Source of the DNA: an uncultured virus (IMG/VR IMGVR_UViG_3300002773_000047)
Taxonomy: Duplodnaviria > Heunggongvirae > Uroviricota > Caudoviricetes
Virus record (IMG/VR): IMGVR_UViG_3300002773_000047
Length of the DNA stretch: 20,000 bases
Strand: one strand, 5' to 3'
In this document: one piece after another, positions 302-18,131 of the stretch
Layout: every line of letters begins with the position of its first letter
Position numbering within the stretch: position 1 is the first letter of the stretch
The notes under the pieces: model-generated
Seen by the model: the letters and a program-made list of their open reading frames with translations, nothing else
What the model was told of the DNA's origin: nothing
Database searches by the model: none
Program-made: the position numbers and the translations under genes

Positions 302-970
302 TCAGGGGCACTGGAGTCGATCCCCGATCTTCTGGCAAACGCGGCCACTCGGGTCCGTGAAGTAGGGGGAATTCCCCTGCTGCCAATTGATGCCCCCTTG
401 GTTGTCGTAACACGCTCCGCCGCGGCAGTCAGTGATGATGCGCGGCGCTTCGGGCGGCTGGGTGTTGGGAGTGGGGTGCGGCGGGCTAGGCGTGCGGTCA
501 GCCACCGCTCGCGCGCGAGTCGCAGCAATGTTCGTTCCGCACGCGGCATCAACTTTCAGTTCTGCGGACCTCACAGGAGCCGAGGCAGGGCCCGGGTGAT
601 TTCCGCGAGCAACCTCCAACTTCACCTTGCTCGTGGCAAGGTCAAGGTCGCGCTGCGCCGCGCGGCACTTTGCCTCGTCGACGGCGGCACCCGGGCCACC
701 AGCTGTGCGGCCGCCGCTGCCTCCGATGATTGTTGCTCCCGGTGCTGGTTGATCGCGTCGCTGATCGTCGTCACGCATCCGCGCGGCGGTATTGCGCTCT
801 GTTGATGCGTCGAGCACGTTGGCCGTGGTGTTCACGCGCGAATCGGCGGCGCCGGCCGGACAGGGGCCGTCACCGTATGTGACCTTCCCGTTCGGCAGGG
901 TGCACTTCGTGACCTGCGCTGAAGCACAGCATGAGGCCAGGACCAGGGCCAAAAAGACGAACCGTTTCAT
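302..970 (-). CDS. DUF4124-like exported protein, 222 aa (accessory/moron gene)
   Basis: ATG at 970 preceded by GGAGGT; signal-peptide-like MKRFVFLALVLASCCASA followed by QVTKCTLPNGKVTYGDGPCP, typical of DUF4124 N-termini; Cys-paired C-terminal domain. Confidence 0.75.
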   Translation of the reverse strand: MKRFVFLALVLASCCASAQVTKCTLPNGKVTYGDGPCPAGAADSRVNTTANVLDASTERNTAARMRDDDQRRDQPAPGATIIGGSGGRTAGGPGAAVDEAKCRAAQRDLDLATSKVKLEVARGNHPGPASAPVRSAELKVDAACGTNIAATRARAVADRTPSPPHPTPNTQPPEAPRIITDCRGGACYDNQGGINWQQGNSPYFTDPSGRVCQKIGDRLQCP

Positions 971-1007
971 GTCGCCCACCTCCAATTTTTGCGAAATGTT
1001 ACTCGCA

Positions 1008-1048
1008 CCCCCGTGGGGTTCGACTGGCGCGCCGGCTCTCCGAAAAAT
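1008..1048 (+). promoter_or_regulatory. Phage late-promoter-like motif, copy 1
   Basis: CCCCCGTGGGGTTCGAC (1008-1024); TCGACT -35-like, 17-nt spacer, AAAAAT -10-like (1043-1048); same architecture at 3119 and 16724. Confidence 0.7.
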
Positions 1049-1077
1049 GGCGCGCATCGAGATCGAGAGGTAGACCC

Positions 1078-3096
1078 ATGCACGGCTTCAAACCCGCCCC
1101 CAAGCGCGCCCATGCGCAACACCTTGCCGAGGGAGGCCTTGTGCGCGGCTTGGTGCGCAAAGTGATGGGCATTCCCGAGCCCTCAGACACGGGCGCCGCG
1201 GCGCCGGCGGCCACACCAGCTGCGCCGCCTCCCGCGCCAGCGCCGGCCCCCGAGAAGGCGATCACCCAGTACGCGGGCATGGGCGCCACCGAGCGTCGCA
1301 TGAAGGCCATGGGCCTGAAAGACGGTGGGCCGGTGCGTGGGCCAGGCACCGGCACCTCCGACAGCATCGAAACCGAGGTTCGACCGGGCAGCTACATCAT
1401 GCCGGCGGACTCCACCGAGCAGCTTGGCGAGGACGGCGTGGCCGCATTGGGCTTCAGCCCGGAGAAGGTGCCGGTGAACCTGAGCAACGGCGAATACCAA
1501 CTGCCGCCCGAGCAGGTACATGCTGTCGGCGTGGAGGCGCTCGACGCGATCAAGGACGCTACCCATGCATCGGCCCCAGGCCCGCGCGGTTTCGCGCCGA
1601 GCGCGGCCGAACCGCCGGTATTCTTCGCCGACGGTGGGCTGGTTGATGAAGATCCCCGTAAGGCGCGCAACCCGCCATCCGCTGCTTCACTGGATGTCAG
1701 CGCCAGCATCCCTGCGCCCTTGCCGATGCTGACGGCCTCGCTGCCGCCCAGTCCGCAGGCGCTGCAGCTGGCCGCCAACGAGAGGGCTGCAGCCACGCCC
1801 GCACCGGCGCCCTCATCGCAGACGAGCCCACTGGCCCAGACCCAAGGGGCTGCATTCGGCGTATTCAGGCGTGAGCCGACGGCGGGGACGCGAGGCGGCA
1901 TGATGCAGCCCTACGTTGCAACCGGCCCCGCGTCGTTCGAGCCAGCAAAGGTGCAGGAGGGCACAGGACGGCTCGATGCATTCAACGATCCGCGCTCGAC
2001 GTTGTTCAAGGGCGAGGCTGATGCGGCACCTGCGCCGACCAGCCGGGGATTCGCCGGTGTGGGCGAAGGCTGGGGCAGTGGCGCGAAGCCTGTGGCAACG
2101 ACCGTCGCCCCGGCAGCGGCGCCTGCAGTACGCCCGACTGCCGCGCCTGTAGCTGCGCCGATCGCACCTGCTATCTCGAACGATGCGCCCGCGAGCGCGG
2201 CGGCAACGGCCGCGAGCCAGGTCATGCCGGGCGTGTTCAGGCAGGGCAACAGCTACGGCGACTCGCCGGCCGCTGCCGCGGCGGGCTTCGCGCCACGCTC
2301 GGCGCCGAGCGCGCAGAACATGGCTGCGGCCGACGCGCTCGAGGCGCGTGGCATCGCAGAGCGAGCCGGTGAGCGGGCTGCTGTAGCTGGAGGCTCGGCA
2401 GCTGGGTTCGCACCTGGTAACGGCCTGACGGTGATCGGAGACGACACCCACGCGGATCGTGTGCGCCGGAGCGCGTTCGGCGCGGCGAGCACGCCGTACC
2501 GAGGATCGCCAAACGGACAGCTCACAGCCAACCAGGTGCGTGTGCTGGCCGGCATGGACGAGGCAAACGGTCGAAACGCGCTCCAGCGCGACACCACCGC
2601 CGCGAACAATGCCGCTTCGCTGGAGCGCGAAGCGATCCAGCAGGCTGGCGCATCCGGCCGGACAGCGGTGCAGGAGGCGGGCGCCAATGTTCGCGCGGGC
2701 GCTACCAACGATGTGCAGCGTGGCGAACTGGCCCTGCGGCAGGAGGCACAGGGGTTTCAAACTCGCGGCGCCCAGCGCGTGGAGAAGCTGTACGAGCAGT
2801 ACGAGAAGGCCAAGCCCGAGGAGCGGGCGGCCATCGCAGAGCAGATCCGCACGATGACGGGCAAGGAGCACCCGAGCCGCTTCACCGTGGTGCCCGGCGG
2901 GCAGGAAATCGACCCGACCACCCAGCAATCCGTCACGAGGCCGGCGCGCGTCTTCAACAACCAGACCGGACAGTTCGTCGAGCAGGGTCAGGCGCCGCGA
3001 GCAGGCCTCCCTCCGGGGATGACCCGACAGGTTGGCACGTCCAACGGGAAGCCGGTCTACGAGGATGCACAGGGCAAACGGTTCATCGGCGGCTGA
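1078..3096 (+). CDS. Ala/Pro-rich phage protein, 672 aa, putative internal virion/ejection protein
   Basis: ATG 1078 with GAGAGG at 1065-1070; contains DGGPVRGPGTGTSDSI and FADGG motifs familiar from phage tape-measure/internal virion proteins; directly upstream of the giant virion gene. Confidence 0.75.
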   Translation: MHGFKPAPKRAHAQHLAEGGLVRGLVRKVMGIPEPSDTGAAAPAATPAAPPPAPAPAPEKAITQYAGMGATERRMKAMGLKDGGPVRGPGTGTSDSIETEVRPGSYIMPADSTEQLGEDGVAALGFSPEKVPVNLSNGEYQLPPEQVHAVGVEALDAIKDATHASAPGPRGFAPSAAEPPVFFADGGLVDEDPRKARNPPSAASLDVSASIPAPLPMLTASLPPSPQALQLAANERAAATPAPAPSSQTSPLAQTQGAAFGVFRREPTAGTRGGMMQPYVATGPASFEPAKVQEGTGRLDAFNDPRSTLFKGEADAAPAPTSRGFAGVGEGWGSGAKPVATTVAPAAAPAVRPTAAPVAAPIAPAISNDAPASAAATAASQVMPGVFRQGNSYGDSPAAAAAGFAPRSAPSAQNMAAADALEARGIAERAGERAAVAGGSAAGFAPGNGLTVIGDDTHADRVRRSAFGAASTPYRGSPNGQLTANQVRVLAGMDEANGRNALQRDTTAANNAASLEREAIQQAGASGRTAVQEAGANVRAGATNDVQRGELALRQEAQGFQTRGAQRVEKLYEQYEKAKPEERAAIAEQIRTMTGKEHPSRFTVVPGGQEIDPTTQQSVTRPARVFNNQTGQFVEQGQAPRAGLPPGMTRQVGTSNGKPVYEDAQGKRFIGG

Positions 3097-3165: not shown

Positions 3166-6100
3166 ATGGCTGGCGAAACTCTCAAGCCCTTCGACGGGCA
3201 ACTCGATACCACACCGCACAACCTCACCCCGTTCGCGGGTGAGCTCGATCCGCCCGATGCAAAGCGCACCGTGCTCGGCACCGCAAAGGATGTCGGGGTC
3301 ACGGCGCTGAAGGGCGCGGTCGGCTTGCCGCAGAGCTTCGTCGGCCTGGCCGACATCGTGACGGGTGGCCGCGCTGGCAAAGCTCTGGAGCAGGCTGGAG
3401 TCGGCTTCGAGGAGACACAGAAGTTCCTCGACGACCAGTACTCCGACGCACAGAAGGCCGCCAATCGCAAGGTGCAGGCAGCCGATGGCTTCGTCGATAC
3501 GGCCAAGACCATGCTGGAGAACCCCAGCACCATCGCTACCAGCGTGGGCGAGTCGATCCCGCAGATGCTCGGCGGCGCAGGTGTGGCGCGCGGTCTGCTC
3601 AAGGTCGCACCCAAGGTGGCGCCTGCCATCGCTGGTGCCATCGGCGAGGGCGTGCTGGGCGCCGGCTCGCAAGCAGAGCAGATCCGCCAAGAGACGCAAG
3701 ACGGGTTGCTCACGCCGAAACAGGCGGCCTTGTCCGCCGCGACCGGCGCTGCGACTGCCGGCTTCGGTGCGCTCGGCGGCCGGCTCGCGCAGCGGCTCGG
3801 TATCGGTGACGCCGACACGATGCTGGCGCAGGGTGCAATCCATGGCGCCGGGCCGGCTTCTCAGCGCTCACTCGCGCGCCAGGTCGGCGCAGGCATCCTG
3901 TCCGAGGGCGTGCTCGAAGAGCTGCCGCAGTCGATGTCCGAGCAGGCGCTGCAGAACCTCGCGCTGGACAAGCCCGTCGGAGAAGGTGTCGGCAAGGCCG
4001 CCGCCGCCGGGTTGCTCGCAGGCGGTGCCATGGGCGGCGGTGCCGCGCTGTTGCACGGCGCGACTGGTCAGCATGCCCCGAATCGGGCGGAGCCCGGTAG
4101 CGCGGAGCGCGTGCCCGGCGAGCAGCTCTCGCTGTTGCCGGTGGACGAAGCTCCGGCAGCCGCGGCGGCGAACGAGCTGCCCGCCGTTGCGGGCGGCCTG
4201 GCCAGCGTGCAGCGCACCTTCGATCCGCGCGACCCGGCCAGCCGGCCGCCGCTGGATGTGATGCCCACGGCCCCCACCGATGGAGTGGAGTTCGAGGCGG
4301 CGCCACAGGGCGCACGCGAGTTCAGCACGGGCAACCTTTCGCTCGCTGATGAAGCGCAGCCCGTGCGCCCCTCCGAAAAGATGGGGCTGGACCCTGCTGC
4401 AGGCCCGCTGTCCACTGCCGCCGCGATGGCGGTGGATGGTGGCGCGCACGACGTGATGAACGCGGCCGCTCAACTCGCCGCTCAGACCGAAGCCGCCGAC
4501 GGCAAGGGCACGAAGCCGGCAGCAGCTTCTCCGGCACCCGCCAGTGTGCCGATGGCGAACGTCAACGCCGAAACCGGCGAGATCTCCGGACAACCGCAAG
4601 ACCGAGAGGCCGAACTGCGGGCACGCCTGGAGTTCGTGCGCCAACAGGCCGCGTCGAACGGCTGGGACCAGCGCCTGATCGCCGAGCGCGACAGCGCGCG
4701 AGCTGAACTGGCCGCACTTGCGCCCGCTGCCGCAGCGCCGACCAGCGTGCAGGAGGGCATCGCTCAAGCGCGCGCCCGCCGCGCAGCGCCCGAATCCGCA
4801 CCGCAACCCAAAGGAGAAGCCCTTGGCACTCAAGCCGACCAAGCCCAGCAAGCAGGCACGCAACAAGCGCCGGCAGGAACAGAAGCGCCAGCAGCTGAGC
4901 CAATCGCGTCCGCCACAACGCTGACGCCCGCGCCGGCAGCACCGGCTGTATCGAACGCGAAGCGCGAGAAGGCGGTGCGCCGCGTGGAAGAAGGGCGCGC
5001 ATGGTTCTTGTCCCGCGACAAGGCGCTGTCCTTCGTGGACACGTCGGGCCTCGCGGACACGCACGAAGTGGTGCCGGACAACCGCCGTTTCGTTGTGCAG
5101 GCCAAGGCCGAACAGCCGGCACAGGATGCGCAGCCGCAAACCGCTGCGCCGGCCGATCAGCTGGCGGACTTGCGCCGCCGACGCGCCGAGGCCGAGCCGG
5201 GCACGCCCCTGCGCCGCGACATCGATAACGACATCGCGGCGTTGGAGCGCGAACAGCAGCAAGCAGTTCGCCGGCCTGAAGCGGTAGCGCCGGTGGATGC
5301 TGCGGCGAACGAAGCCGCCACCAGCCCGCAGAACGACCTGCCCGAGCCTAGTCAGGCCCAGAAAGAGGCGGGCAACTACAAGATGGGCCACCTGTCCGGT
5401 GACGAGGTACAGGGCCTGCGCATCAGCGTGGAGAACCCGCACGGCAGCACGCGCAGCGGCACCTCGCCGGACGGGACCGAGTGGAGCAACACGATGGCCG
5501 CACACTACGGCTACGTGAAGGGCTCCGAGGCAGCAGACGGCGACCACGTGGATGTGTTCGTCGGGCCGGCAGCCGCGACAGCACCGACGGTCTACGTGGT
5601 GGACCAGATCAACGCGGATGGCTCCTACGACGAGGCCAAGGCGCTGATGGGGTTCAACAGCGAAGCCGAGGCCTTGGCCGCCTACAAGGGGAGCTACAAC
5701 AAGGGCTGGAAGGTCGGTCCGGTCACCGCGATGTCGATGGACGACTTCAAGGCTGCGCTCGCGGACGGGCGCCTGAAGAAGCCGCTCTCGCCCACATTGA
5801 GCGAGCCCGTGCGCGAATCCTCGCCCGCTCCAGCAGCGCAGCGCGCTACGACGATGGAGACGGCGCGCACCGCGCTGGCTTCGTACTTCGATTGGTATCT
5901 CAGCCGCAATCCGAAGGCATCCCGCCCGATGGGCGGGATCTATCAGGGCAACAGCTTCACGCTCGACGCCGGCGGCGCGCCATTCACGAAGGCGGGCCAG
6001 GTACAGGTGAACGGCTTTAAGGAACTGACCTTCAACTACACGGCCGCGTGGAAAGAGGCTCAGTCGCGCGCCGCCGCAGCAGCGCCGGCCGCCGCCCCGA

Positions 6101-9100
6101 TTGCTGCTACCAAAGCAGGAGACGAAAATGGACGAAATGCAGGAACTGTACCGACCGAACGACTACCCGCCGCCGATCAAGGAAGCGATGCGCGCGATGC
6201 CGGCGCTGGCGACCGAGATCGCCAACCGGTGGATGCTCGGGTGGCCGAAGCGGGTGAAGGCGCTGATCGAGGCGAGCGAGTTCCTGCCGGCGCTGAAGGA
6301 GCAGGAGGAGGCCGAGCGGAGAGCGTACAGCGACTCCGGGAATCGGCACCTGGCGAGGCACGAGATAGCCGAGCTGTACGGCCTGAGCGACAGTCCGCCG
6401 ACGCTGTAGCCGACCCGGCGACCGCCGAGGCCTCGCCAAAGCCCGAGCTCGACCAGTCGGGCGACCACACGCTGGATGCCGACGATATCGGCAAGGGTGG
6501 GCTCACCAAGAAGTACCGCGACAACATCGCTGCCATCCGCATCCTGAAGGCGCTCGCCAGCGAGAGCCGCAAGGCCACCCCGGAGGAGCGCAAGCAGATC
6601 GCGCGCTACGTCGGCTGGGGTGCGCTGAAGGGCGTGTTCGACCCGCAGAACAAGCAGTGGGCCAAGGAATTCGCCGAGCTGCGCGAGTTGTTGACCGATG
6701 CCGAGTACAAGGCCGCTCGCGCGTCGATGCTGAACGCGCACTACACGGCGCCGGTGGTGGTCAACGGCATCTACGATGCGCTCGAGCGCATGGGGTTCAC
6801 CGCTGGCCGCATTCTCGAACCGGCGGTGGGAACCGGCAACTTCTTCGGCCTGATGCCCGCGAGCATGCGCAAGCGCTCGCAGCTGCATGGCGTGGAGCTG
6901 GACCCGCTCACCAGCCAGATCGCGGCGGCGCTGTATCCGAGCGCCAAGGTGGCGCGGGCCACCGCGTTCCAGGACTTCCAGGCCCCGTCCGAGTACTTCG
7001 ACCTGGCGGTGGGCAATCCGCCATTCGGCTCGGAGCCCATCGTCGATGACGACCGCTCGCCGTATTCGGGTTTCTCGATCCACAACTACTTCTTCGCCAA
7101 GAGCATCGACAAGCTGCGCCCCGGTGGCCTGCTGACGATGGTGGTGTCGCACAACTTCCTTGACGCCAAGAACGAAGCAGCACGGCAGTGGATCGCCGAT
7201 CGGGCCAACCTGGTGGCAGCGGTCCGGCTGCCGCGAACCGTGTTCAAGGAGAACGCCGGCACCGACGTGGTGACCGACATCGTGGTGCTCCAGAAGAAAA
7301 CGGAATCCGAGCGCGCGAGCGGATTGGGCGATGCGGCGTGGGTGAAGGCCGGCCAGCAGACCCTGACCAACCCGAAGACCGGCGAGGCGACGCAGCACAA
7401 CGTCAGCAGCTACTTCCTGACCAATCCCGATGCGGTGCTGGGCACGCCGGCGGCGGCCGGCGGGATGTATCGCCTGGGCGAGTACACCGTGGAGCCCTCC
7501 GGCGATCTGGCGCAACAGCTGAAGGCATGGGCCACCGCGCTCCCGGAAGACCTCTATCAGCCTGTGGAGCGCACGCACGAGCAGGAAGCTGCCGACGTGG
7601 TGGTGCCTGACGGTGTGAAGGTTGGTTCGTTCTACGTGGACGACAGCGGCCGCGTGCAGATGCGCGGCCCGGATTCGCTGGGCAATCGAACGGCAGAGCC
7701 GTGGACGCCGCCCAACGCGAAGGCTGCCGAGCGCATGAAGGGGATGGTTGGCCTGCGCGACGCGCTGCGAGCACAGATGCGCCTGGAGCGCTCCCCGGAC
7801 TCTACCGACGGACAGATCGAGCAGCACCGCCGCGAGTTGAATCGCCTCTATGACGGGTTCCAGAGCAAGTACGGCTACCTGAACGACCCGACCAACCGCC
7901 GCATCTTCCTGGACGACACCGAGTCGGCCCTGGTGCTGGCGCTGGAGTTCGACTACGACCGTGGCGTGAGCAAGGCGGTGGCCGAGCGCGAGGACATCGA
8001 GCCGCGTGCGCCCAAGGCAATCAAGGCCGACATCTTCGCGCGGCGCGTGATGTTCCCGCCCGCGGACAACATCAAGGTGAGCAACGCCAAGGACGCGCTG
8101 CTGGCCAGCCTGAACTACAAGGGCCGGCTGGATGCCGACTACATGGCGACGCTGTACGACAAGTCACCGGCCCAGATCGTGTCGGAACTTGGTGACGTGG
8201 TGTATGCCGACCCGGTGAACGGGCTCGTGATGGCCGACGAATATCTGTCGGGCGACGTGAAGACGAAGCTGGCCGAAGCAGAGGCCGCCGCGCGTGACGA
8301 CCCGGCGCTTCGCCGCAACGTGGAGGCCCTGCGCAAGGTCATTCCGGCCGACAAGCGGCCGAGCGAGATCCACGCGGCCATGGGCGCGGCTTTCATACCG
8401 TCGGAACTATTCCAGCAATTCGCCAAGGAAGTGACCGGCGCCGACGCGCGCGTCACCTACCTGCGCGCCACCGGTCAATGGCTGGTGGACTACACGTCCC
8501 AGCCCAACCCGGCGCTCAACACGGCGAAGTGGGGCATTGGCAGGATGACCGCGCAGAACATCTTCATGCGCACGATGGCCGGCCAGGGCGTGGTGGTCAC
8601 GGACACCATCCGCGACCCGAACGGTGGTACCCGCACCGTGGTGCTGGAGAAGGAAACGGAGGCCGCGCGCGAGAAGCAGGCCGCGATGAAGGCCGAATGG
8701 CAGCGCTGGCTGTGGAGCGACCCTGAGCGCGCCGACCGTGTGGCGGGCATCTACAACGACAAGATGAACCGCATCGTGGTGCGGCGCTTCGATGGCTCGC
8801 ATATGACCTTCCCGGGCATGTCGCCCGCGATGGAGTTGCTGCCGCACCAGAAAGATGCCGTATGGCGCGCGCTTCAGCAGCGCCAGATCCTGCTGGATCA
8901 CGTCGTCGGTGCTGGCAAGACCTTCGAGGTTGTGGCTGCCATCATGGAAATGCGCCGGCTGGGCATTGCGCGCAAGCCGATCGTCACGGTGCCCAACCAC
9001 CTCACCCTGCAGTGGCGCAGCGAGTTCTCGCGCCTCTACCCGGCGGCCAACGTGCTGGCGGCCACGCCCGACGACTTCACCAAGGGCAATCGGGAGAAGT

Positions 9101-12100
9101 TCTTCTCCAAGATCGTCACCGGCGACTGGGATGCCGTCATCATCGGCCATTCCAGCCTGAAGAGGATCGCGCTGCCGGCCGAGACAGAAAAGGCCGTGCT
9201 GGAAGAGCAGATTACCGAGTTGGCCGACAGCATCGGCGAAATGAAGCGCGCCCGCGGCGACCGGAATGTCGTGCGCGACATGGAGAGCATCAAGGCCCGT
9301 CTGGAAGCCCGCATGAAGCAGCGCGTGCAAGCCCTTGGCGAGCGCGACAAGGTAGTGACCTTCGACGAGCTCGGCGTCGATGCTTTCGCCATCGACGAGC
9401 TGCACGAGTTCAAGAACCTCTTCTACAACTCCACCATGGAGCGCGTGCCCGGCATGGGCAACCCCGGCGGCTCGGACAAGGCGTTCGACCTGTTCGTGAA
9501 GGCGCAGTACCTCTTCGACGCGCTGGGGGACAAGGCGCCGCTGATGGGCGCGACCGGCACGCCGGTTTCCAACAGCCTGGTGGAAATGTTCAATATGCAG
9601 CGGTTCCTGCAGTACCCGACGCTGAAGGCGCAGGGCCTGCACGTCTTCGACGCCTGGGCCAAGCAGTTCGGCAGCGTGGAATCGCTGTACGAGGTGTCGC
9701 CGTCTGGGACCGGCTACCGCCAGGCCTCGCGCTTCGCCAAGTTCAAGAACCTGCCGGCGCTGATGGGCATGTACCAGACCTTCGCCGACACGGTGACGCT
9801 GGACGATCTGAAGGCGCAAGAGGAAGCCCGAGGCCGCACATTCCCGGTGCCGCAGGTGGCCGGCGGCCGCCCGGTGAACGTGGTGGCGAAGCGCTCGCCG
9901 GAGGTGGCCAACTTCATGGGCGTGCCGCAACTGGACATCCAGGGCGGGCGAGTGCAGTTCGGGTTCAACCCGGCCGCTGGGGAGCGCGCAGTTATCGAGA
10001 AGGCCGAGGACGGCAACAGCTGGCGCGCCGAAACCCGCGTGCCGCAGCCCGACGAGAAGGAGATTCGGCAGCTGATCGGCTCGGCCAAGACCGAAGAGGA
10101 TGCCAAGCTGCTGGTGGTCGAAGCCGCCCTGTCGCCCAAGATCAAGGTGGACCCGAAGTCGATCCTCGGCCAGTTCGCCGACCTGAAGCGGCTGACGAAG
10201 GAAACGAAGGGGAAGGTCAACGCGCTGTCGCTGACCGGCCAAGCCAACAAGGCGGGCTTGGACTTCCGCCTGATCGACCCGTCGGCGCCCGACTTCGAGG
10301 GCTCGAAGATCAATCTCGCCGTCGACCGCATGCTGGGCACCTACCAGAAGTGGACCAGCGACCGAGGAACGCAACTGGTCTTCTGCGACCTGTCCGTGCC
10401 CCTCTCGGCACGCAGCGGCTTCGGCAGCAAGGAGCGGCGCGTGTACGTGCGAGACGACGGCGCCCTGGTGCACAAGAAGGGCACCATGCACACGGTTCGC
10501 GGCCACGAAGACTTGCCGTTCTTCGTGGTGAAGGAGGGCGGCAAGGACGCCAAGGCCTTCGCCATCTACGACGCCGCCACGGGCTTGCGCGTGCACACCG
10601 GCCTGCCGGCCAAGGGCATTGCGACCGACTGGGCGGCGCAGGCCCTGAACGACGACGGCCGCCGCCAGCGCTGGATCGACGCCCGCGACCGCATCGGCGA
10701 CCTCCAGCAGGACGAGATCGACGACTACAACAACGCCAACGAGATCGACACCGAGGAAACCGAATCGATCTCGCTGGCCGACATCGCAGGCATGTCGGGA
10801 GCCACCGCGTTCTCGGTGTACGACGACATCAAGGGCAAGTTGATGGCGCGCGGCGTGCCGGAGCGCGAAATCGCCTTCATCCACGACTACAACACGCCCG
10901 CAGCGAAGGACAAGCTGTTCAAGGCGGTGAATCGGGGCGACATCCGCTTCCTGCTGGGCTCCACGCCGAAGATGGGCGCCGGCACCAACGTGCAGGAGCG
11001 CCTGGTCGGGCTGCATCACATCGACGCGCCCTGGCGCCCGAGCGACCTGGAGCAACGCGAGGGCCGCATCATCCGCCGCGGCAATGCGCTCTATGCTCGT
11101 GACCCGGATGGTTTCGAGGTGGAAATCTACCGCTACGCCACCGAGCAGACCTACGACACCCGCCGGTGGCAGATCCTGGAGCACAAGGCTCGCGGCATCG
11201 AGCAGCTGCGTAAGTACGACGGCACCCTCAACGAGATCGACGACATCGAGGGGGAGGCCGCCAACGCGGCCGACATGAAGGCCGCCGCCTCGGGCGACCC
11301 GCTCATCCTGGAAGAAACACGGCTACGCAACGATGTGCGCCGCCTCGAATCACTGCAAGCCTCCCACGCGGACGAAACGGCTTCGATGGTGCGCCAGGCG
11401 CGCGACCAACAACGCTTCGCGCAAGACTGGGGCCCGAAGGAGCTGGAAACGTTCCGAGGTCTGCAGGCTGCCGCCGAGGCCAACCCGGTGCCCAAGGATG
11501 GCTTCGCTGGCCTGACCGTTGCCGGGAAGACGATCACCGACCGCGAAGCGGCTATCAAGGCCGTCAAGCGGGGCATCGATCGTGTGTTCGTAAGCGGCGG
11601 GCAGGAGGAGTTCCAGTACCGAGGCGTGACCTTCATGCTGGAAGGCACGCCCGACCACGTGGAGCTCAATTCGCCCACCGGTGGGCTGGATTCCTATCGG
11701 CCGGCCAGGGACGTGCTGCCGTCGGCGGCGGGCATCCTGACCCGCTTCGGCAACTACATCAACCGTCTCCCGGCGCACATCGTCGACCTCGATGCGAAGA
11801 TCACGGAAGCGAAGCAGGCGGCAGTGCAATTGCGCGAGCAGGCCGGCAAGCCATTCGCCCAGGCGAAGGAGCTGGAGTCAGCACGCGAGGCACATCGCCG
11901 GGTGCAGCGCCGGCTCGTGGCGAAGGGGCCGGACATCCCGCTGAACCAGCGACCCGCCCTGCAGAAGGCCATGGCCGAGCAGCGCCAGCAGCTCATCGAG
12001 CAGGGGTTCGGGGATACGCTCGAGGAGTTCGGCGGTGGCGCCGACGATGCGCAGTTCCGCCGGGACGGGACCGAAATGCTGTCGCCCGAGGCAGCCAGAG

Positions 12101-15100
12101 CCATGCGGGCGCTCCTGCCTAACTACTCGCCGCAGGCTCGCGCACAGGCTGTAGCGTCTGTGACCAAGACGGTGGAGGCGATCCGCGCAGGCTGGGGCAA
12201 CGGGCCCGAGGTGATCGTGGCGTTCGACATGGGTGACCCGGTTGTGCCCGAGGCGGCCCGCCGCGCGGACCTGAAGCAGCGCAGCGGCGGCGCACGGGGC
12301 GCTCCCGAGGGCTTCTACTACCGTGGCAAGGCCTACTTGATGGCCTCGCGGCTGCCCACGGCCAACGATGCGGCGCGCGTGCTCTTTCACGAAGTACTCG
12401 GCCACCACGGGCTGCGCGGCCAGTTCGGCAAGGGGCTGGACGACGTGCTGAACCAGATCGGCACCATGCGCCGCGCTGACGTGGACGCGAAGATCAAGGA
12501 ATACGGGCTGCGCGGCGTCAACAAGCTCGACCGGCGCGCCGCGGCGGAGGAAGTCCTGGCCGAAATGGCGCAGACACACCCCGAGCTGCACTTCGTGCGC
12601 CGCGCCATCGCCGCGATCCGCACCTGGCTGCGCCAGCACGTGCCGGGTTTCAGCAACCTGCGGATGACGGACGACGAGATCGTGCGCAACTTCATCCTGC
12701 CGGCTCGGCGCTTCGTTGAGCAGGGCGGCCCGGACGACGGGCCCGGCGACGGGCTGCGCTTCAGCCGTGGTGACGCAGGCCCCGCCTCGACCAACAGCCT
12801 CGATACCCCCATCGCCGCCAACGACGAAGGTGTAGCGAACTTCTGGCACTGGTACAGTGGGCAGGATGGAAGCCTCAAAGACACCCGAAGCAGCACGCAA
12901 GGATCTGGAGGAACTGCTGGCGGAGCTGCCGCCGGTGGGCCCGGCCGAGATGGCGGCGCACCTGGGCGACTCGGACCCGTTGATGCGCAAGGCCGCCCGC
13001 TCGTATTTTTCCACGGCACGCGAGACGACTTCACCGCGTTCGATACCGAGCACCCAAACCGAAAAGACGTAGGCTGGCTCGGCCGCGGCGTCTACGGTGC
13101 GAGCGACCCGGCGGACGCCAACTACTATGCCGGCGCCAAGCGCGGAGGCGGTGGGCAGCGCGTCATGCCGCTGTATTTCGCGGTCACGAACCCCTACGTT
13201 GCCACGCCGGAGATCAAGGCCCGGCTGAAGCGGGCCACGCAGGCCCAGGTCGATCGCTTCACGGCGAACCTGCGCGCGATGGGGCATGACGGCGTGACGC
13301 TCACTGTCGAAGATGGCTCGGTGGAGATCGTCGCGTTCGATCCCAGCCAGGTGAAATCGGCCATCGGCAACAGTGGGGCATTCGACGCTGGCACCTCGGA
13401 CATCCGGTTCAGCCGATCCACGGTGCAGGACTTCGCCAAGAAGGCCACCGCCGAGCTCAATAAGACTTTCAATGCGCCCGGCAAGTTGTCTTGGTGGCAC
13501 AAGACCGTGGGCACCATGTACAACCTCGCGGAGCGTTCGCCAGCCTTCAAGGCGGTGTTCGACTCAGCGCAAGGGTTCGTCGACGACGTGAGCTTCTACG
13601 CCAACGACGCGGCCGAACTGGCGCCCAAGCTGCTGCCGAAGCTGGAGACGTGGCGCGATATCAAGAAAGCGCCGGTGGCCGCGGCCGACAACGCCGCAGT
13701 GGCGAAGCCGGTCTTCGAAGGCACGCTGACCTGGGCGCGAGACGAACAGGGCATGCCGGTACCGGTGCAGTCGCTCATCGACGCGGCGGCCGAGCTGTCG
13801 GCCGACCAGAAGGCGCAGCGCCTGCTGCGAAACGGGCAGATCGACGAGCGCATGCTGAAGGCATGGCAGGGCATGCCAATGGAATCCTATGAGAAGGCCA
13901 TCAGCACGCGCTTCGAGTCGCGCATGCTGCAGCCGGGCGTCGTCTGGACCGATGCGGAGCTGCGCTCCATGTTCAAGCTCACGGACGACCAGATCGCGCT
14001 CTACCACGAGTTCCGCGAGACGACCGACCGAAGCCTGGACACGATGGCACGCGCCGACATGCTGCGTTTCGTGGGCGACGATGCCAAGGGCATGCGTGGC
14101 ATGGTGATGGATGCGCCGGACGCCCAAGCGGCGGCCGTGCTGCTGCGCGATCACCTGGTGCAGTTGGCCAACGAGCAGCCTGACCGCGCGACTCAGATCC
14201 TGAACACCGCCAACGGCATCATCGACCGAGCCGACAAGGTGCGCGAGCTGCAGGCCCGCGGGTATGCGCCGCTGTCGCGCTTCGGCCGCTACTCGGTCGA
14301 CGTGGTGGACGCTGCCGGGGAGCGGCAGTACTTCGGCCTGTTCGAGACGGCGCGCGAGGCCAACAACATGGCCGCCCAGATGCGGGAAGAGTTCGGCGAT
14401 GCCACCGTCACCCAAGGCACGCTCTCGGAGGAGGCCTTCAAGCTCTTCGCTGGCGTGACGCCCGAGACGCTGGAACTCTTCGGCAATGCCCTTGGCCTCG
14501 ATTCGACCGGCGAAAGCGCGCAGGACCAGGCTTTCCAGGAATACCTGCGGCTGACGAAGACCAACCGCAGCGCAATGCGGCGGCTGATCCATCGCAAGGG
14601 CATCGCCGGTTTCAGCGAAGACGTGGGCCGCGTGCTGGCTTCCTTCATCTACTCGAACGCGCGCCAGACGGCCGCCGGCCTGCACATGGGCGACCTCGGC
14701 GAGGCGGTGCAGGCCATCCCGAAGGAACAGGGCGAGCTGAAAGATGCCGCCGTGCGCCTGGCCGACTATGTGAAGAACCCGCAGGAGGAGGCGCAGGCGG
14801 TGCGCGGGCTGCTGTTCGCGCAGTACCTGGGCGGCTCGGTCGCGTCGGCGTTCGTGAACATGACCCAGCCTATCGCTGTGACGATGCCGTGGCTGAGCCA
14901 GTACGGCGGCGCGCGCGCCGCGGCCGCGCAGATCGGCCGGGCGGCCAAGAACATCGCCACGCGCGGCTTCGAGTACGAACCGGATCTCGCCGCGGCGCTC
15001 AAGCGCGCCGAGGACGAGGGCACCGTGAGCCCGCAGGAGGTGCATCAGCTGATGGCGCAGGCGCGCGGCGCGAGCTCCCTGCGCTCCGGCGACGGCACGC

Positions 15101-16293
15101 GCGGCGGCGAGCTGCGCGCGATGGGCCAGAACGCACTGTCGCGCCTGTCGCTGGCCTGGGGGAAGCTCTTCGGCGCCGCCGAGCAGGTGAACCGCCGCAT
15201 CACGTTCGTCGCGGCCTACCGCACGGCGAAGGCGCAGGGCATCGATGACCCGGCAGGGTTCGCTCGCAAGGCGATCACCGAAACGCAGTTCCTCTACTCG
15301 AAGGCGAACAAGATGGAGTGGGGCAGGGGGGCGATCGGCGGAACGCTGATGACCTTCAAGACCTACTCGGTGGCCTACCTCGAGCTGCTGCACCGCATGT
15401 ACACGCAGGGCGGGCCCGAGGGCAAGCGCGCCGCGCTGCTGGCGCTGGGCATGCTGATGCTGATGGGCGGCGCCGGCGGCCTGCCGTTCGAGGAAGACCT
15501 GGAGGATGCGGTCGACGCGCTGGCGCAGATGCTTGGCTACAACTTCTCGACGAAGAAGGCCCGCCAGGAATTCCTGGAGAGCCTGCTGCCGAAGTCGATC
15601 GCGCAGTTCATCGACAAGGGCGTGAGCGGTCTGCCCGGCGCGCCTCTGGACGTGTCGGGCCGCCTTGGCATGGGGAACCTCATCCCCGGCACCGGCCTGC
15701 TGCTGGAGAAGACCAGCCACGCGCGCGACCTGCTGGAGATCGCGGGCCCGGCCGGCGACTTCGCCAGCCGCATCCTCTCCGGCGGTCGCAGCATGCTCAC
15801 CGGCGACGTGGGCGCCGGACTGCTGGAAATGTCGCCCGCAGCGGTGCGCAACGCGGCCAAGGGCGTGGACATGGCCGCGACTGGCATGTACCGGGATGCC
15901 AAGGGCTACAAGGTGCTGGACACGAACACGCTGGAGGCGGCCCTCAAGGGCATCGGCTTCCAGCCGAACAGCGTGGCCACCATCCAGGAGGCGAACGGCA
16001 TCAACCAGGGCGCGAAGGCGTTCTACAACCTGCGTGCGCAGGAGATCCGGGCGCTGTGGGCACAGGGCATCTTCGAGGGCGATCAGCAGAAGGTGCAGGA
16101 AGCTCGCGACCAGGTGGCCGCGTGGAACCGGAAGAACCCCGAGCAGCCGATGCTGGTGCGCATCCCCGACGTGATGCGCCGGGTGCGCGAGATGCGCAAG
16201 TCCAAGGATGAGCGGATCGCCGATACCGCGCCGCGTGTGATGCGTGCTCAGATGCGGGAGGATCTGGCCCGGGCTCGAGCTTCTGAAGCCTGA
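3166..16293 (+). CDS. Giant (4375 aa) DarB-like polyvalent phage protein: Gly/Ala-rich N-terminus, pyrophosphatase-like domain, N6-adenine DNA methyltransferase, SNF2/SF2 helicase, HExxH metallopeptidase, ART-like domain, PLxRFG C-terminal region
   Basis: Uninterrupted ORF. HYGY...DGDHVDVF at ~5300-5780; MTase ILEPAVGTGNF (~6811) and NPPF (7015-7026); Walker A HVVGAGKT (8899-8922), DELH (9394-9405), ATGTP, PWRPSDLEQREGR (~11030); HEVLGH (12388-12405); VDAQGRPLVFFHGT...GRGVY (~12980-13100); PLSRFG (14269-14286). The MTase+SNF2 fusion is the architecture of phage P1 DarB. Confidence 0.92.
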   Translation: MAGETLKPFDGQLDTTPHNLTPFAGELDPPDAKRTVLGTAKDVGVTALKGAVGLPQSFVGLADIVTGGRAGKALEQAGVGFEETQKFLDDQYSDAQKAANRKVQAADGFVDTAKTMLENPSTIATSVGESIPQMLGGAGVARGLLKVAPKVAPAIAGAIGEGVLGAGSQAEQIRQETQDGLLTPKQAALSAATGAATAGFGALGGRLAQRLGIGDADTMLAQGAIHGAGPASQRSLARQVGAGILSEGVLEELPQSMSEQALQNLALDKPVGEGVGKAAAAGLLAGGAMGGGAALLHGATGQHAPNRAEPGSAERVPGEQLSLLPVDEAPAAAAANELPAVAGGLASVQRTFDPRDPASRPPLDVMPTAPTDGVEFEAAPQGAREFSTGNLSLADEAQPVRPSEKMGLDPAAGPLSTAAAMAVDGGAHDVMNAAAQLAAQTEAADGKGTKPAAASPAPASVPMANVNAETGEISGQPQDREAELRARLEFVRQQAASNGWDQRLIAERDSARAELAALAPAAAAPTSVQEGIAQARARRAAPESAPQPKGEALGTQADQAQQAGTQQAPAGTEAPAAEPIASATTLTPAPAAPAVSNAKREKAVRRVEEGRAWFLSRDKALSFVDTSGLADTHEVVPDNRRFVVQAKAEQPAQDAQPQTAAPADQLADLRRRRAEAEPGTPLRRDIDNDIAALEREQQQAVRRPEAVAPVDAAANEAATSPQNDLPEPSQAQKEAGNYKMGHLSGDEVQGLRISVENPHGSTRSGTSPDGTEWSNTMAAHYGYVKGSEAADGDHVDVFVGPAAATAPTVYVVDQINADGSYDEAKALMGFNSEAEALAAYKGSYNKGWKVGPVTAMSMDDFKAALADGRLKKPLSPTLSEPVRESSPAPAAQRATTMETARTALASYFDWYLSRNPKASRPMGGIYQGNSFTLDAGGAPFTKAGQVQVNGFKELTFNYTAAWKEAQSRAAAAAPAAAPIAATKAGDENGRNAGTVPTERLPAADQGSDARDAGAGDRDRQPVDARVAEAGEGADRGERVPAGAEGAGGGRAESVQRLRESAPGEARDSRAVRPERQSADAVADPATAEASPKPELDQSGDHTLDADDIGKGGLTKKYRDNIAAIRILKALASESRKATPEERKQIARYVGWGALKGVFDPQNKQWAKEFAELRELLTDAEYKAARASMLNAHYTAPVVVNGIYDALERMGFTAGRILEPAVGTGNFFGLMPASMRKRSQLHGVELDPLTSQIAAALYPSAKVARATAFQDFQAPSEYFDLAVGNPPFGSEPIVDDDRSPYSGFSIHNYFFAKSIDKLRPGGLLTMVVSHNFLDAKNEAARQWIADRANLVAAVRLPRTVFKENAGTDVVTDIVVLQKKTESERASGLGDAAWVKAGQQTLTNPKTGEATQHNVSSYFLTNPDAVLGTPAAAGGMYRLGEYTVEPSGDLAQQLKAWATALPEDLYQPVERTHEQEAADVVVPDGVKVGSFYVDDSGRVQMRGPDSLGNRTAEPWTPPNAKAAERMKGMVGLRDALRAQMRLERSPDSTDGQIEQHRRELNRLYDGFQSKYGYLNDPTNRRIFLDDTESALVLALEFDYDRGVSKAVAEREDIEPRAPKAIKADIFARRVMFPPADNIKVSNAKDALLASLNYKGRLDADYMATLYDKSPAQIVSELGDVVYADPVNGLVMADEYLSGDVKTKLAEAEAAARDDPALRRNVEALRKVIPADKRPSEIHAAMGAAFIPSELFQQFAKEVTGADARVTYLRATGQWLVDYTSQPNPALNTAKWGIGRMTAQNIFMRTMAGQGVVVTDTIRDPNGGTRTVVLEKETEAAREKQAAMKAEWQRWLWSDPERADRVAGIYNDKMNRIVVRRFDGSHMTFPGMSPAMELLPHQKDAVWRALQQRQILLDHVVGAGKTFEVVAAIMEMRRLGIARKPIVTVPNHLTLQWRSEFSRLYPAANVLAATPDDFTKGNREKFFSKIVTGDWDAVIIGHSSLKRIALPAETEKAVLEEQITELADSIGEMKRARGDRNVVRDMESIKARLEARMKQRVQALGERDKVVTFDELGVDAFAIDELHEFKNLFYNSTMERVPGMGNPGGSDKAFDLFVKAQYLFDALGDKAPLMGATGTPVSNSLVEMFNMQRFLQYPTLKAQGLHVFDAWAKQFGSVESLYEVSPSGTGYRQASRFAKFKNLPALMGMYQTFADTVTLDDLKAQEEARGRTFPVPQVAGGRPVNVVAKRSPEVANFMGVPQLDIQGGRVQFGFNPAAGERAVIEKAEDGNSWRAETRVPQPDEKEIRQLIGSAKTEEDAKLLVVEAALSPKIKVDPKSILGQFADLKRLTKETKGKVNALSLTGQANKAGLDFRLIDPSAPDFEGSKINLAVDRMLGTYQKWTSDRGTQLVFCDLSVPLSARSGFGSKERRVYVRDDGALVHKKGTMHTVRGHEDLPFFVVKEGGKDAKAFAIYDAATGLRVHTGLPAKGIATDWAAQALNDDGRRQRWIDARDRIGDLQQDEIDDYNNANEIDTEETESISLADIAGMSGATAFSVYDDIKGKLMARGVPEREIAFIHDYNTPAAKDKLFKAVNRGDIRFLLGSTPKMGAGTNVQERLVGLHHIDAPWRPSDLEQREGRIIRRGNALYARDPDGFEVEIYRYATEQTYDTRRWQILEHKARGIEQLRKYDGTLNEIDDIEGEAANAADMKAAASGDPLILEETRLRNDVRRLESLQASHADETASMVRQARDQQRFAQDWGPKELETFRGLQAAAEANPVPKDGFAGLTVAGKTITDREAAIKAVKRGIDRVFVSGGQEEFQYRGVTFMLEGTPDHVELNSPTGGLDSYRPARDVLPSAAGILTRFGNYINRLPAHIVDLDAKITEAKQAAVQLREQAGKPFAQAKELESAREAHRRVQRRLVAKGPDIPLNQRPALQKAMAEQRQQLIEQGFGDTLEEFGGGADDAQFRRDGTEMLSPEAARAMRALLPNYSPQARAQAVASVTKTVEAIRAGWGNGPEVIVAFDMGDPVVPEAARRADLKQRSGGARGAPEGFYYRGKAYLMASRLPTANDAARVLFHEVLGHHGLRGQFGKGLDDVLNQIGTMRRADVDAKIKEYGLRGVNKLDRRAAAEEVLAEMAQTHPELHFVRRAIAAIRTWLRQHVPGFSNLRMTDDEIVRNFILPARRFVEQGGPDDGPGDGLRFSRGDAGPASTNSLDTPIAANDEGVANFWHWYSGQDGSLKDTRSSTQGSGGTAGGAAAGGPGRDGGAPGRLGPVDAQGRPLVFFHGTRDDFTAFDTEHPNRKDVGWLGRGVYGASDPADANYYAGAKRGGGGQRVMPLYFAVTNPYVATPEIKARLKRATQAQVDRFTANLRAMGHDGVTLTVEDGSVEIVAFDPSQVKSAIGNSGAFDAGTSDIRFSRSTVQDFAKKATAELNKTFNAPGKLSWWHKTVGTMYNLAERSPAFKAVFDSAQGFVDDVSFYANDAAELAPKLLPKLETWRDIKKAPVAAADNAAVAKPVFEGTLTWARDEQGMPVPVQSLIDAAAELSADQKAQRLLRNGQIDERMLKAWQGMPMESYEKAISTRFESRMLQPGVVWTDAELRSMFKLTDDQIALYHEFRETTDRSLDTMARADMLRFVGDDAKGMRGMVMDAPDAQAAAVLLRDHLVQLANEQPDRATQILNTANGIIDRADKVRELQARGYAPLSRFGRYSVDVVDAAGERQYFGLFETAREANNMAAQMREEFGDATVTQGTLSEEAFKLFAGVTPETLELFGNALGLDSTGESAQDQAFQEYLRLTKTNRSAMRRLIHRKGIAGFSEDVGRVLASFIYSNARQTAAGLHMGDLGEAVQAIPKEQGELKDAAVRLADYVKNPQEEAQAVRGLLFAQYLGGSVASAFVNMTQPIAVTMPWLSQYGGARAAAAQIGRAAKNIATRGFEYEPDLAAALKRAEDEGTVSPQEVHQLMAQARGASSLRSGDGTRGGELRAMGQNALSRLSLAWGKLFGAAEQVNRRITFVAAYRTAKAQGIDDPAGFARKAITETQFLYSKANKMEWGRGAIGGTLMTFKTYSVAYLELLHRMYTQGGPEGKRAALLALGMLMLMGGAGGLPFEEDLEDAVDALAQMLGYNFSTKKARQEFLESLLPKSIAQFIDKGVSGLPGAPLDVSGRLGMGNLIPGTGLLLEKTSHARDLLEIAGPAGDFASRILSGGRSMLTGDVGAGLLEMSPAAVRNAAKGVDMAATGMYRDAKGYKVLDTNTLEAALKGIGFQPNSVATIQEANGINQGAKAFYNLRAQEIRALWAQGIFEGDQQKVQEARDQVAAWNRKNPEQPMLVRIPDVMRRVREMRKSKDERIADTAPRVMRAQMREDLARARASEA
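4823..4924 (+). CDS. Putative nested small basic peptide (33 aa, MALKPTKPSKQARNKRRQEQKRQQLSQSRPPQR) in the +1 frame of the giant gene
   Basis: AAAGGAG at 4810-4816, 6-nt spacer, TTG start; nested codons mostly G/C-ending while the giant frame here uses many CAA/GCA/GGA/ACA codons. Confidence 0.45.
   Translation: MALKPTKPSKQARNKRRQEQKRQQLSQSRPPQR
6128..6409 (+). CDS. Nested hypothetical protein (93 aa, MDEMQELYRPNDYPPPIKEAM...GLSDSPPTL) in the +1 frame of the giant gene
   Basis: AGGAG at 6117-6121, 6-nt spacer, ATG; by hand count 85 of 93 codons end in G/C; globular helical-looking sequence, while the giant frame is a low-complexity G/R/D/A linker with rare codons (CTA, CGA, GGA). Confidence 0.8.
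   Translation: MDEMQELYRPNDYPPPIKEAMRAMPALATEIANRWMLGWPKRVKALIEASEFLPALKEQEEAERRAYSDSGNRHLARHEIAELYGLSDSPPTL
12850..12858 (+). promoter_or_regulatory. Putative internal extended -10 promoter (TGGTACAGT)
   Basis: TGn-TACAGT matches the extended -10 pattern; the ATG of a nested ORF begins 8 nt after it (12866). Confidence 0.4.
12866..13072 (+). CDS. Nested hypothetical protein (68 aa, MEASKTPEAARKDLEELLAELPPVGPAEMAAHLGDSDPLMRKAARSYF...) in the +1 frame of the giant gene
   Basis: Amphipathic helical sequence; core codons almost all G/C-ending; giant frame reads as a 39-aa Gly-rich insert (QDGS...RLGP) between NFWHWYSG and VDAQGRPLVFFHGT; upstream extended -10. Confidence 0.55.
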   Translation: MEASKTPEAARKDLEELLAELPPVGPAEMAAHLGDSDPLMRKAARSYFSTARETTSPRSIPSTQTEKT

Positions 16294-17602: not shown

Positions 17603-18124
17603 ATGCTGCCCGACTTCAAGACTCCTCTGCTGTGGGTGCTCGGCCTCGCTCTCGTCGCCACACTGGCCACGGCCGGCATCGAGCGCACGCGCGCAGCTGG
17701 TGCTCGCGCTGATGCTACGACCGCGCGCAAGGATCTCGCCGACTACCGTGCTTCGCAGGCCGAATCCGGCCGTCTGGCCGAGCGCGCCGCGCGCACCCAA
17801 GAACAGACCTGGCGCGCTCGCGTCGATGGAGTGATTCAAGATGGTCAAAAACAGATTGCCCGTGCTCGGGACGATGCTGGCCGTGCTGGTGCTGCTGAAC
17901 GCCGGCTGCGCGAACAGCTTGACGCCTATCGCGCCGCCGTCCGCGCAGCCACCACAGCGCCCGCGGCTGCCGGCGGAAGCCCGCCAGCCGAAGCCGCCCT
18001 CGATCTGCTCACCGACCTGCTCAGCGGGAGTGGAACGGCTCTTCGGGAGCTGGGGCAGTTCGCTGACGCTGCCCACAGCGCCGGCACCATCTGCGAGCGG
18101 TACGCCGACTCCACAGAGCCCTGA
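17603..18124 (+). CDS. Rz: Rz-like inner-membrane spanin (DUF2514-like)
   Basis: GGGGG RBS-like run; N-terminal TM helix, coiled-coil body, C-terminal GTICERYAD; follows the endolysin. Confidence 0.85.
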   Translation: MLPDFKTPLLWVLGLALVATLATAGIERTRAAGARADATTARKDLADYRASQAESGRLAERAARTQEQTWRARVDGVIQDGQKQIARARDDAGRAGAAERRLREQLDAYRAAVRAATTAPAAAGGSPPAEAALDLLTDLLSGSGTALRELGQFADAAHSAGTICERYADSTEP

Positions 18125-18131
18125 GAACTAG
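17841..18131 (+). CDS. Rz1: Rz1-like outer-membrane lipoprotein spanin overlapping Rz in the +1 frame
   Basis: GGAG at 17828-17831; signal peptide with lipobox LNAGC; Pro-rich mature region with CSPTC; classic Rz/Rz1 overlap. Confidence 0.85.
   Translation: MVKNRLPVLGTMLAVLVLLNAGCANSLTPIAPPSAQPPQRPRLPAEARQPKPPSICSPTCSAGVERLFGSWGSSLTLPTAPAPSASGTPTPQSPEN

Follow-up and report, generated by a model that had tools for sequence, protein, structure and literature searches.

To our knowledge, long conserved out-of-frame overlaps between genes of bacteria and phages are rare and mostly anecdotal, the cases already known being Rz/Rz1, traI/traH and phiX174. Rz and Rz1 are two subunits of one complex of known function, and both are functional. 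VirE1, for its part, is a small, acidic and helical secretion chaperone that is encoded next to its substrate, VirE2. For TraH (RP4/R751), an excerpt of the published account describes stabilization of the relaxosome (PMC7314908). Polyvalent proteins, likewise already known, were described in phages and conjugative elements and include DarB of phage P1 (Iyer, Burroughs, Anand, de Souza, Aravind 2017; PMC5512222); a term search of that text gave no mention of an embedded out-of-frame gene, and a limited search, covering open-access full text only, found no description of a polyvalent or DarB gene with an embedded, overlapping or overprinted gene. Here we describe a gene of this kind, named S, in a stretch of 20,000 nucleotides (the window) from an uncultured virus of the Caudoviricetes (IMG/VR record IMGVR_UViG_3300002773_000047), where it lies inside a giant open reading frame (ORF) predicted to code for a polyvalent, DarB-like protein (Table 1). 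What is new is the S family, its embedding across a clade of giant phage anti-defence genes and a route of gene fusion over a retained gene that seems to be visible among its relatives.

S in the window and its relatives

S is an embedded gene: in the window, in Pseudomonas phage 8P, in 17 genome loci and in 36 viral loci it lies wholly within a longer ORF of the same strand, in another frame. An earlier note on this DNA had described, at 6117-6409, an AGGAG, six nucleotides, an ATG and a frame of 93 aa, all of which are present in the sequence, and the translations that it quoted for the nested and the giant frames agree with ours. An open +1 frame of this length is by itself unremarkable at 68% GC, and the ORF list of the window contains many. 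The count of 85 codons ending in G or C among the 93 of S was reproduced (two end in T), whereas the giant frame has 41 of 94 over the same bases. In windows of 150 nt, the G+C content at third codon positions (GC3) reaches 0.98 for the nested frame at 6166-6315 and 0.46 for the giant one; on both flanks of S the giant frame is at 0.84-0.92, and along the whole ORF, except across linkers, at 0.8-0.98. Two other GC3 flips in the giant ORF (4666-4965 and 12916-13065) fall in Ala/Pro/Gly-rich linkers and were ruled out as further nested genes, since their +1 frames carry stops. The S site is the sole place in the giant ORF where, at this window size, a GC3 flip and a conserved alternative-frame ORF coincide. 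The codon-position signal, the existence of homologues and the conservation within related giant genes together place S well beyond chance. Read in the giant frame, the same bases give a peptide that opens with GDENGRNAGTVPTERLPAADQGSDARDAG and has the composition of a flexible linker, its 94 residues including A19, R15, G14, E9, D9, V7, P6, S5 and L2, and no I, F, W, Y or M.

The relation between S and the giant frame is not an assembly error, since the region 5900-6700 is covered by contigs of independent public DNA runs that differ from it by 6-7 substitutions and by no insertion or deletion. By our own reading of the contig comparison, three polymorphisms within S occur across other runs, two of them synonymous in S and nonsynonymous in the giant frame and one the reverse. 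No sigma-70-like promoter was found within 5400-7000 and nothing unusual in the RNA structure around the S start (z -1.4), and the mRNA of the giant gene presumably serves for the translation of S as well. A listing of public runs for 5400-7400 contained none of RNA. The start signals were compared in 18 nested copies, namely the window, 16 distinct genome loci in which S is linked to a methyltransferase, and phage 8P. A Shine-Dalgarno-like motif stands 5-10 nt before an ATG or GTG at the family N-terminus in all 18, against a background of 100 among 1017 (9.8%) ATG triplets elsewhere in the same giant ORFs.

Stand-alone homologues, for which the earlier note had suggested a search, do exist. 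A word-indexed search returned 119 homologues, 51-163 aa long and in the most distant cases about 42% identical, and an exhaustive hidden Markov model search of 1.84 billion representatives returned 136 profile matches at E<=0.001, nearly all of about 90 aa, the longest credible one having 264 aa. Matches of 697 and 1193 aa to the same profile were discarded as spurious, being repeat proteins that align only to the last 30-40 profile positions. Among the homologues found, S appears never to be fused in frame to the giant protein or to form an in-frame domain of it. The invariant or near-invariant positions of the family are Y13, A32-N-R-W35, G38-W-P40, Q59, E63, H74-L-A-x-H-E79 and a C-terminal PP, and the corresponding motifs of the window S read IANRWMLGWP and HLARHEI. 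The protein is acidic, with a pI of 5.16; across the family, the median pI is 5.64 and 75 of 120 members have values under 6. An AlphaFold2 model built with 120 sequences has five helices (predicted local distance difference test, pLDDT, 82.4; predicted template modelling score, pTM, 0.70). One homologue, in the metagenome-assembled genome (MAG) P0121, has a scrambled middle part.

No match to S was found in Pfam, NCBIfam or PADLOC, and the best one in PHROGs had an E value of only 0.46. Foldseek searches of the model against PDB and BFVD gave 0 matches at E<=0.001, the top Z in a VIA-align comparison with 48,161 chains was 4.8, a noise-level value where helical proteins are concerned, and the ESM Atlas returned unnamed clusters only. 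The sole sequence match in PDB, to the helix-turn-helix-like protein AlpA (7xya_G; 38 residues, weak E of 0.055), is a lead only, and extracytoplasmic function (ECF) sigma factors scored Z 3.1-4.2 against the model, under the noise level for helical proteins. A complex prediction of S with the N-terminal 615 aa of the methyltransferase gave a score of 0.00, obtained without controls and counting neither way.

With one genome per species, we identified 52 S loci (designated L and a number), all in beta- or gammaproteobacteria or in MAGs binned with them, and 36 S loci in viral contigs of IMG/VR. A methyltransferase-helicase lies 3' of S in 17 of the 52 genome loci, in 16 of them in the phase of the window (S = giant +1), and in the viral contigs the methyltransferase is in phase +2 in 35 of 36, the remaining contig ending inside S. 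The link to a methyltransferase-helicase that the earlier note proposed thus stands for these loci, but it is not specific. In some 15 further loci, the gene 3' of S is DEDD/RNase H-like (phrog_2259) and often followed by a metallophosphoesterase, and S is also found 5' of phosphoesterase and HAD genes, behind MOBP relaxases. In the RNase H-like loci, the genes 5' of S code for MOBP relaxases with LPD7 and KfrB domains, for KfrA or for other plasmid proteins; two plasmids of PLSDB carry S, in one of them with an N-6 DNA methylase gene following it. The downstream gene of the RNase H-like loci starts at its family-normal N-terminus (M-L-I/V-F-I/L-D-T-E-F), overlapping or abutting the S stop and mostly in phase -1 relative to S, an arrangement that, to judge from the sequence, is classical translational coupling. 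N-terminal extensions of RNase H-like or HAD genes through S were considered for L018, L015 and L032 and ruled out, the family-normal start sitting at the S stop. All-against-all clustering of ORF fragments revealed no universal neighbour of S, only two alternative downstream classes, methyltransferase-helicase and RNase H-like. Copies linked to one or the other are interleaved on the S tree, and close relatives differ in their next gene, which indicates that S moves between payloads.

In many loci S is free-standing, and the other frames there carry stops. In L022/L023, L026, L028, L036 and L049, the methyltransferase-helicase ORF encloses S and starts 50-400 nt 5' of it. In L026, L036 and L049 this ORF is not fused to upstream genes and begins 20-55 nt before the S start, giving two starts in two frames within about 60 nt, and its N-terminal peptides carry an LF/IF motif (MENGQNGLFD, MAGEQSSIFEE and MKNERQANLFG). 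L022 and L023 are identical 8.3-kb loci, in a Gallionellaceae MAG and in a 'Candidatus Paceibacterota' MAG, both from one series of sites; a double binning of the element is probable, and its assignment to the Candidate Phyla Radiation is doubtful. L002 has one in-frame stop in its methyltransferase region (locus position 4752). In L034, a MAG locus, an ORF at 3271-4410 (+) runs through S (4001-4339) in the -1 frame and ends in a KfrB domain (aa 323-367), which begins where S homology stops; the next gene codes for a C5-methylase-KfrB protein. With this ORF, the host genes of S would include a third type, whose topology resembles that of traI with traH inside it. Finally, the cultured Pseudomonas phage 8P (MT152150) has a 5145-aa coding sequence (CDS) annotated as 'structural protein', with an unannotated S inside it in frame +1, 77% identical and with a GC3 flip of 0.84 versus 0.43.

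Selection on the two frames

Among 17 nested copies, mean amino acid identity is 0.505 in the S frame and 0.331 in the giant frame, and it is higher for S in all 136 pairs. The nucleotide differences at S codon positions 1, 2 and 3 number 6, 4 and 25 between the window and L001, 4, 5 and 21 between L017 and L020, and 8, 7 and 16 between L002 and L003. Since the third positions of S are the first positions of the giant frame, these differences result in radical replacements in the latter (R/G, V/L), in the shadow of ANRWMLGWP. The amino acid constraint seems to be carried by the S frame, with purifying selection on S, and nested copies that have diverged to 41-50% identity still have the ORF, the conserved motifs, the Shine-Dalgarno-like motif and the start intact. 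The earlier note had taken the nested frame for the older and selected one and the giant frame for a secondary reading; the third-position substitutions, the identities and the free-standing S loci all point the same way.

The giant frame corresponds to the -1 frame of S, and its openness was judged against two nulls, in which synonymous codons were either resampled at the usage of the longest ORF of the locus or permuted within S itself. The -1 frame is open across S in every one of the 18 methyltransferase-linked cases (the window and 17 genome loci, of which two are identical), while 1.2 were expected under the first null and 3.8 under the second; in the window and in at least 10 genome loci it is, in addition, continuous with long coding sequence on both sides. 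Every one of the 36 viral loci has this frame open, against an expectation of about 9.4 (per-locus probabilities summed by hand), and in most of them it stays open over the entire 6-kb locus. The +1 ORF is therefore conserved among related giant genes in both sets, as the reading of the earlier note had demanded. Taken alone, the window has a P(open) of 0.19 under within-S permutation. Values are far lower in loci of low GC content: P=0.007 under the conservative null in L004 (Acinetobacter, 39% GC), none of 600 permutations open in L028 (39% GC), and P<=0.01 individually in four viral loci at 39-41% GC.

The openness is accompanied by a shortage of T-ending codons in S as compared with the host gene (0.15 versus 0.40 in L004, 0.10 versus 0.31 in L022 and 0.02 versus 0.17 in L013). 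With few such codons, TAA, TAG and TGA split after their T by the S codon boundary are avoided in the -1 frame, and this is the only requirement for keeping it open. A natural contrast is offered by L022, which is methyltransferase-linked and has 0 stops in the -1 frame, and its close S relatives L035, L038 and L040, which are RNase H-linked and have 1-2 stops each, every one of them made by a T-ending codon. Both frames thus appear to be maintained by selection, S as seen from the third-position bias and the identities, and the giant frame as seen from the lack of stops together with the depletion of T at third positions of S.

Proposed history, putative role and alternatives

We think it probable, as the best explanation overall, that S is an embedded gene whose bases the giant frame uses as a linker, that this arrangement arose through fusion, and that S acts in trans; the part that concerns the embedded gene and the fusion, taken by itself, we hold to be very probable. 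Translation of S would begin on the mRNA of the giant gene, at an ATG and a Shine-Dalgarno site of its own, and the same 282 bases would serve the giant protein as a disordered linker that joins its N-terminal part, which contains InPase, to the methyltransferase-helicase part. One stretch of DNA would in this way encode both a spacer of the giant protein and a separate protein that is small, acidic and helical.

Three stages may be proposed for the history of the locus. S would have been free-standing at first, with a coupled downstream gene starting at the S stop in the -1 phase. The frame of a downstream methyltransferase-helicase would then have been extended 5' through S in that same -1 phase, giving an ORF that starts just before S. 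In phages, the extension would finally have reached the upstream genes, forming one ORF with thousands of codons on either side, in which S was retained. The comparative series from free-standing through enclosed to spanning fits such an upstream frame extension followed by fusion in phages, and stops would be avoided in the -1 frame of S because any of them truncates a methyltransferase-helicase that depends on an upstream start.

As for its role, S would be made as a separate protein and would act in trans, as an assembly, chaperone-type or stabilizing partner of the transferred multidomain protein or of its neighbours. That S is never fused in frame, though its neighbours fuse freely, suggests that it acts as a separate molecule; still, we propose such a trans-acting role only tentatively and by analogy. 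It is also conceivable, if doubtful, that S is an obligatory free subunit for the folding, packaging or delivery of giant anti-defence proteins and of payload enzymes linked to MOBP relaxases, in phages and plasmids alike. If S were needed for the packaging or delivery of the giant protein, it would be a new component of phage and plasmid counter-defence delivery. As an obligatory free subunit, S would correspond in function to TraH and to secretion chaperones, and the polyvalent protein would have been built by fusing neighbours across S, since S must stay unfused.

Several points weigh against this explanation. The translation of S is predicted from its sequence, the functional step draws only on size, charge, gene coupling and the analogy with TraH, and no fold or family match in the sequence and structure searches with S backs a role as partner, chaperone or, as the earlier note also considered, inhibitor. 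In L036, the exception among the 17 methyltransferase-linked genome loci, methyltransferase homology carries on in the S phase, not in +2, past an apparent frame change at about 4400-4527, where a frameshift mutation or an assembly error of the MAG is possible. Open -1 frames occur, too, in 10 of the 31 loci without the methyltransferase, against 2.1 and 4.2 expected, and S is poor in T-ending codons in such loci too (0.04 versus 0.29 for the longest ORF in L030, 0.09 versus 0.36 in L031 and 0.03 versus 0.26 in L035). Part of the openness may come from a codon habit of S itself or from recent descent from nested forms, and the shortage of T-ending codons in these loci could reflect such a descent, transfer from GC-rich hosts or a further constraint. 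Moreover, the loci share ancestry, so that 18 of 18 and 36 of 36 are not counts of independent trials: the S DNA of five viral loci recurs unchanged in another locus, several viral loci nearly duplicate the window or each other, and at least one repeats a genome locus (L002, with which it shares a contig of 59,826 bases).

The excess of open -1 frames in the loci without the methyltransferase, present even with a downstream start at the S stop, would also be expected if the -1 frame peptide (...DRxRQPLDAGLAxxG...) were a functional module of the giant protein, such as a processing site or a packaging or translocation signal, and the L034 ORF that passes through S to a KfrB domain agrees with this. 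We nevertheless find such a module unlikely. Identity in the giant frame is far below that of S in every one of the pairs compared, with radical changes, what looks like a motif there reflects the invariant ANRWMLGWP of S, and the downstream genes of L018, L015 and L032 keep their family-normal start at the S stop.

Programmed frameshifting, either as a +1 shift before S that yields an N-terminal fragment ending in S, or as a -1 shift near the S end into the methyltransferase-helicase, seems to us improbable. In its favour, one phase relation, with S in giant +1, is shared by 16 of 17 genome loci and 35 of 36 viral loci, and a purine-rich Shine-Dalgarno-like element upstream can in principle stimulate a frameshift, as in prfB. 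However, no X XXY YYZ -1 slippery heptamer occurs in the S frame at any of 17 loci, and some nested loci, L028 for example, have S-frame stops a few codons 5' of the start, which together make independent initiation much likelier than frameshifting. Free-standing S genes with their own start in many loci, and the initiation spacing of the Shine-Dalgarno-like motif in all 18 nested copies, argue in the same direction, and the giant frame is open over all of S, for which a -1 shift near the S stop has no need.

That the giant ORF is an artefact, in which three genes (for the N-terminal protein, S and the methyltransferase-helicase) are joined by chance openness or an assembly error, might be suggested by the window alone, as its P(open) is 0.19 and long open alternative frames are common at 68% GC. 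We regard this as very improbable, since the upstream coding frame has no stop until 16293 and must read through, the frame is open in all methyltransferase-linked and viral loci, including genomes of 39-41% GC with P<=0.01, the independent contigs have no indels, and the counterpart in phage 8P is annotated as a single CDS. Least credible of all is that S is a dead relic in the nested loci, kept by recent fusion with only the giant frame functional, since nested copies at 41-50% identity remain intact in ORF, motifs, Shine-Dalgarno-like motif and start, with substitutions biased to S third positions, even if the expression of S is a prediction and its middle part is scrambled in MAG P0121.

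The reading of S as an embedded gene retained through fusion has unusually broad comparative support, S being present in giant genes of a group of beta- and gammaproteobacterial phages that includes a cultured one, while free-standing plasmid relatives would display the ancestral state. It would provide a concrete mechanism for building polyvalent proteins, by fusion across a retained gene. Standard annotation drops S, as seen in phage 8P, where it was left unannotated. If S is indeed an obligatory free subunit, alternative-frame read-through of an intervening gene would be a general and overlooked route to multidomain giants, and gene callers would systematically miss embedded cofactors. The overlap also offers an experimental handle, as single-base changes can kill one frame while being silent in the other.

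The host gene, its surroundings and known systems

The source record is a provirus of 64.6 kb, and the window corresponds to its first 20 kb, on the minus strand; the proteins encoded in the window include an endolysin, an Rz-like spanin and further phage proteins (PHROG matches). The giant protein combines InPase, Eco57I methyltransferase, SNF2/Helicase_C and ART-PolyVal domains in one phage polypeptide and is, from its domain content, a polyvalent protein in the sense of PMC5512222. InPase is its last recognized domain 5' of S. The methyltransferase module is 52-87% identical to related loci across about 600 aa (tblastn), and this inter-locus homology starts at aa 1086 (nt 6421), 12 nt past the S stop; the Eco57I methylase, of the N6-methyltransferase type, matches at aa 1262-1355 (Pfam). 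The protein matches giant families of PHROGs, among them phrog_10089, 'DarB-like antirestriction', to which two of its parts align (E 1.2e-38 and 9.7e-42). With its methyltransferase and helicase modules and this family match, the giant protein has the features of a DarB-like antirestriction protein, an activity that is predicted here. Directly 5' of the giant gene, a 721-aa ORF at 931-3096 (+) has a match in phrog_11341, a family of unknown function (E 6e-100), and includes a short stretch that resembles tape-measure proteins.

Table 1. Features of the window that bear on S and its host gene
Feature	Position	Strand	Remarks
Shine-Dalgarno-like AGGAG	6117..6121	+	Read from the sequence; 6-nt spacer to the S ATG
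S, 93-aa embedded gene	6128..6409	+	ATG 6128-6130, TAG 6407-6409; frame +1 of giant ORF 3166-16293
Giant-frame reading across S, aa 988-1081	6127..6408	+	A/R/G/E/D-rich linker
Giant ORF, 4375 aa/codons	3166..16293	+	ORF list; predicted polyvalent, DarB-like virion or anti-defence protein; hosts S
InPase domain of the giant protein	5353..5760	+	Pfam PF18823, E 2.8e-47, aa 730-865; coordinates converted from residue numbers
Conserved methyltransferase module, giant-protein aa 1086-1700	6421..8265	+	tblastn against related loci; Eco57I/MTS Pfam matches inside
SNF2-type helicase module	8830..11082	+	Pfam ResIII 1889-2002, SNF2-rel_dom 1904-2016, Helicase_C 2566-2639
ART-PolyVal ADP-ribosyltransferase domain	12982..13383	+	Pfam PF18760, E 1.7e-24, aa 3273-3406

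Among the known systems, the polyvalent proteins are represented by the giant host gene itself, of which S is a companion gene and never a domain of the polypeptide. Chaperones of the VirE1 type may be likened to S as small, acidic, helical proteins whose gene lies directly 5' of that of a protein destined for delivery to another cell and is translationally coupled to it, a likeness drawn from size, charge, helicity and gene order.

The Rz/Rz1 spanins share with S and its host the presence of a +1 out-of-frame gene within another phage gene, but S overlaps only a linker of its host and is also found free-standing elsewhere. The window has an embedded spanin pair of its own: an Rz-like ORF at 17603-18124 (+; phrog_312, E 7.8e-26) overlaps a 96-aa Rz1-like ORF at 17841-18131 (+), in frame +1 of the former, with a lipobox (LLNAGC) and a Pro-rich tail. 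S and the Rz1-like ORF are thus two unrelated out-of-frame embedded genes in the same window.

The closest analogue of S, as far as gene arrangement can tell, seems to be traH in traI of the IncP-1 plasmids. Homology between the two proteins was ruled out, as hhalign of the S alignment against R751 TraH gave a probability of 0.2%. TraH is Cys-rich with a Pro-rich N-terminus, whereas S is predicted to have five helices and has W-rich motifs; S follows the relaxase gene and does not lie within it, and its phage host is a virion polyvalent protein, not a relaxase. An embedding of S in the post-LPD7 linker of a MOBP relaxase was likewise rejected, S lying 3' of the relaxase ORF, and a Pfam search gave no LPD7 match in the giant protein of the window. 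The topology, nevertheless, is alike. In R751 (L056), traH at 13103-13495 lies inside traI at 12798-15041, on the same strand, in frame +1 and at an offset of 1546 nt, over a G/R/A/P/D-rich TraI linker (aa ~516-646) between LPD7 (421-509) and the TraI-like C domain (655-740). In both systems, therefore, the gene of a small acidic protein lies wholly within that of a large transferred multidomain protein, in frame +1 and over a linker, and the S-bearing plasmid loci add to this likeness, in that a MOBP relaxase with LPD7 is encoded directly 5' of S.

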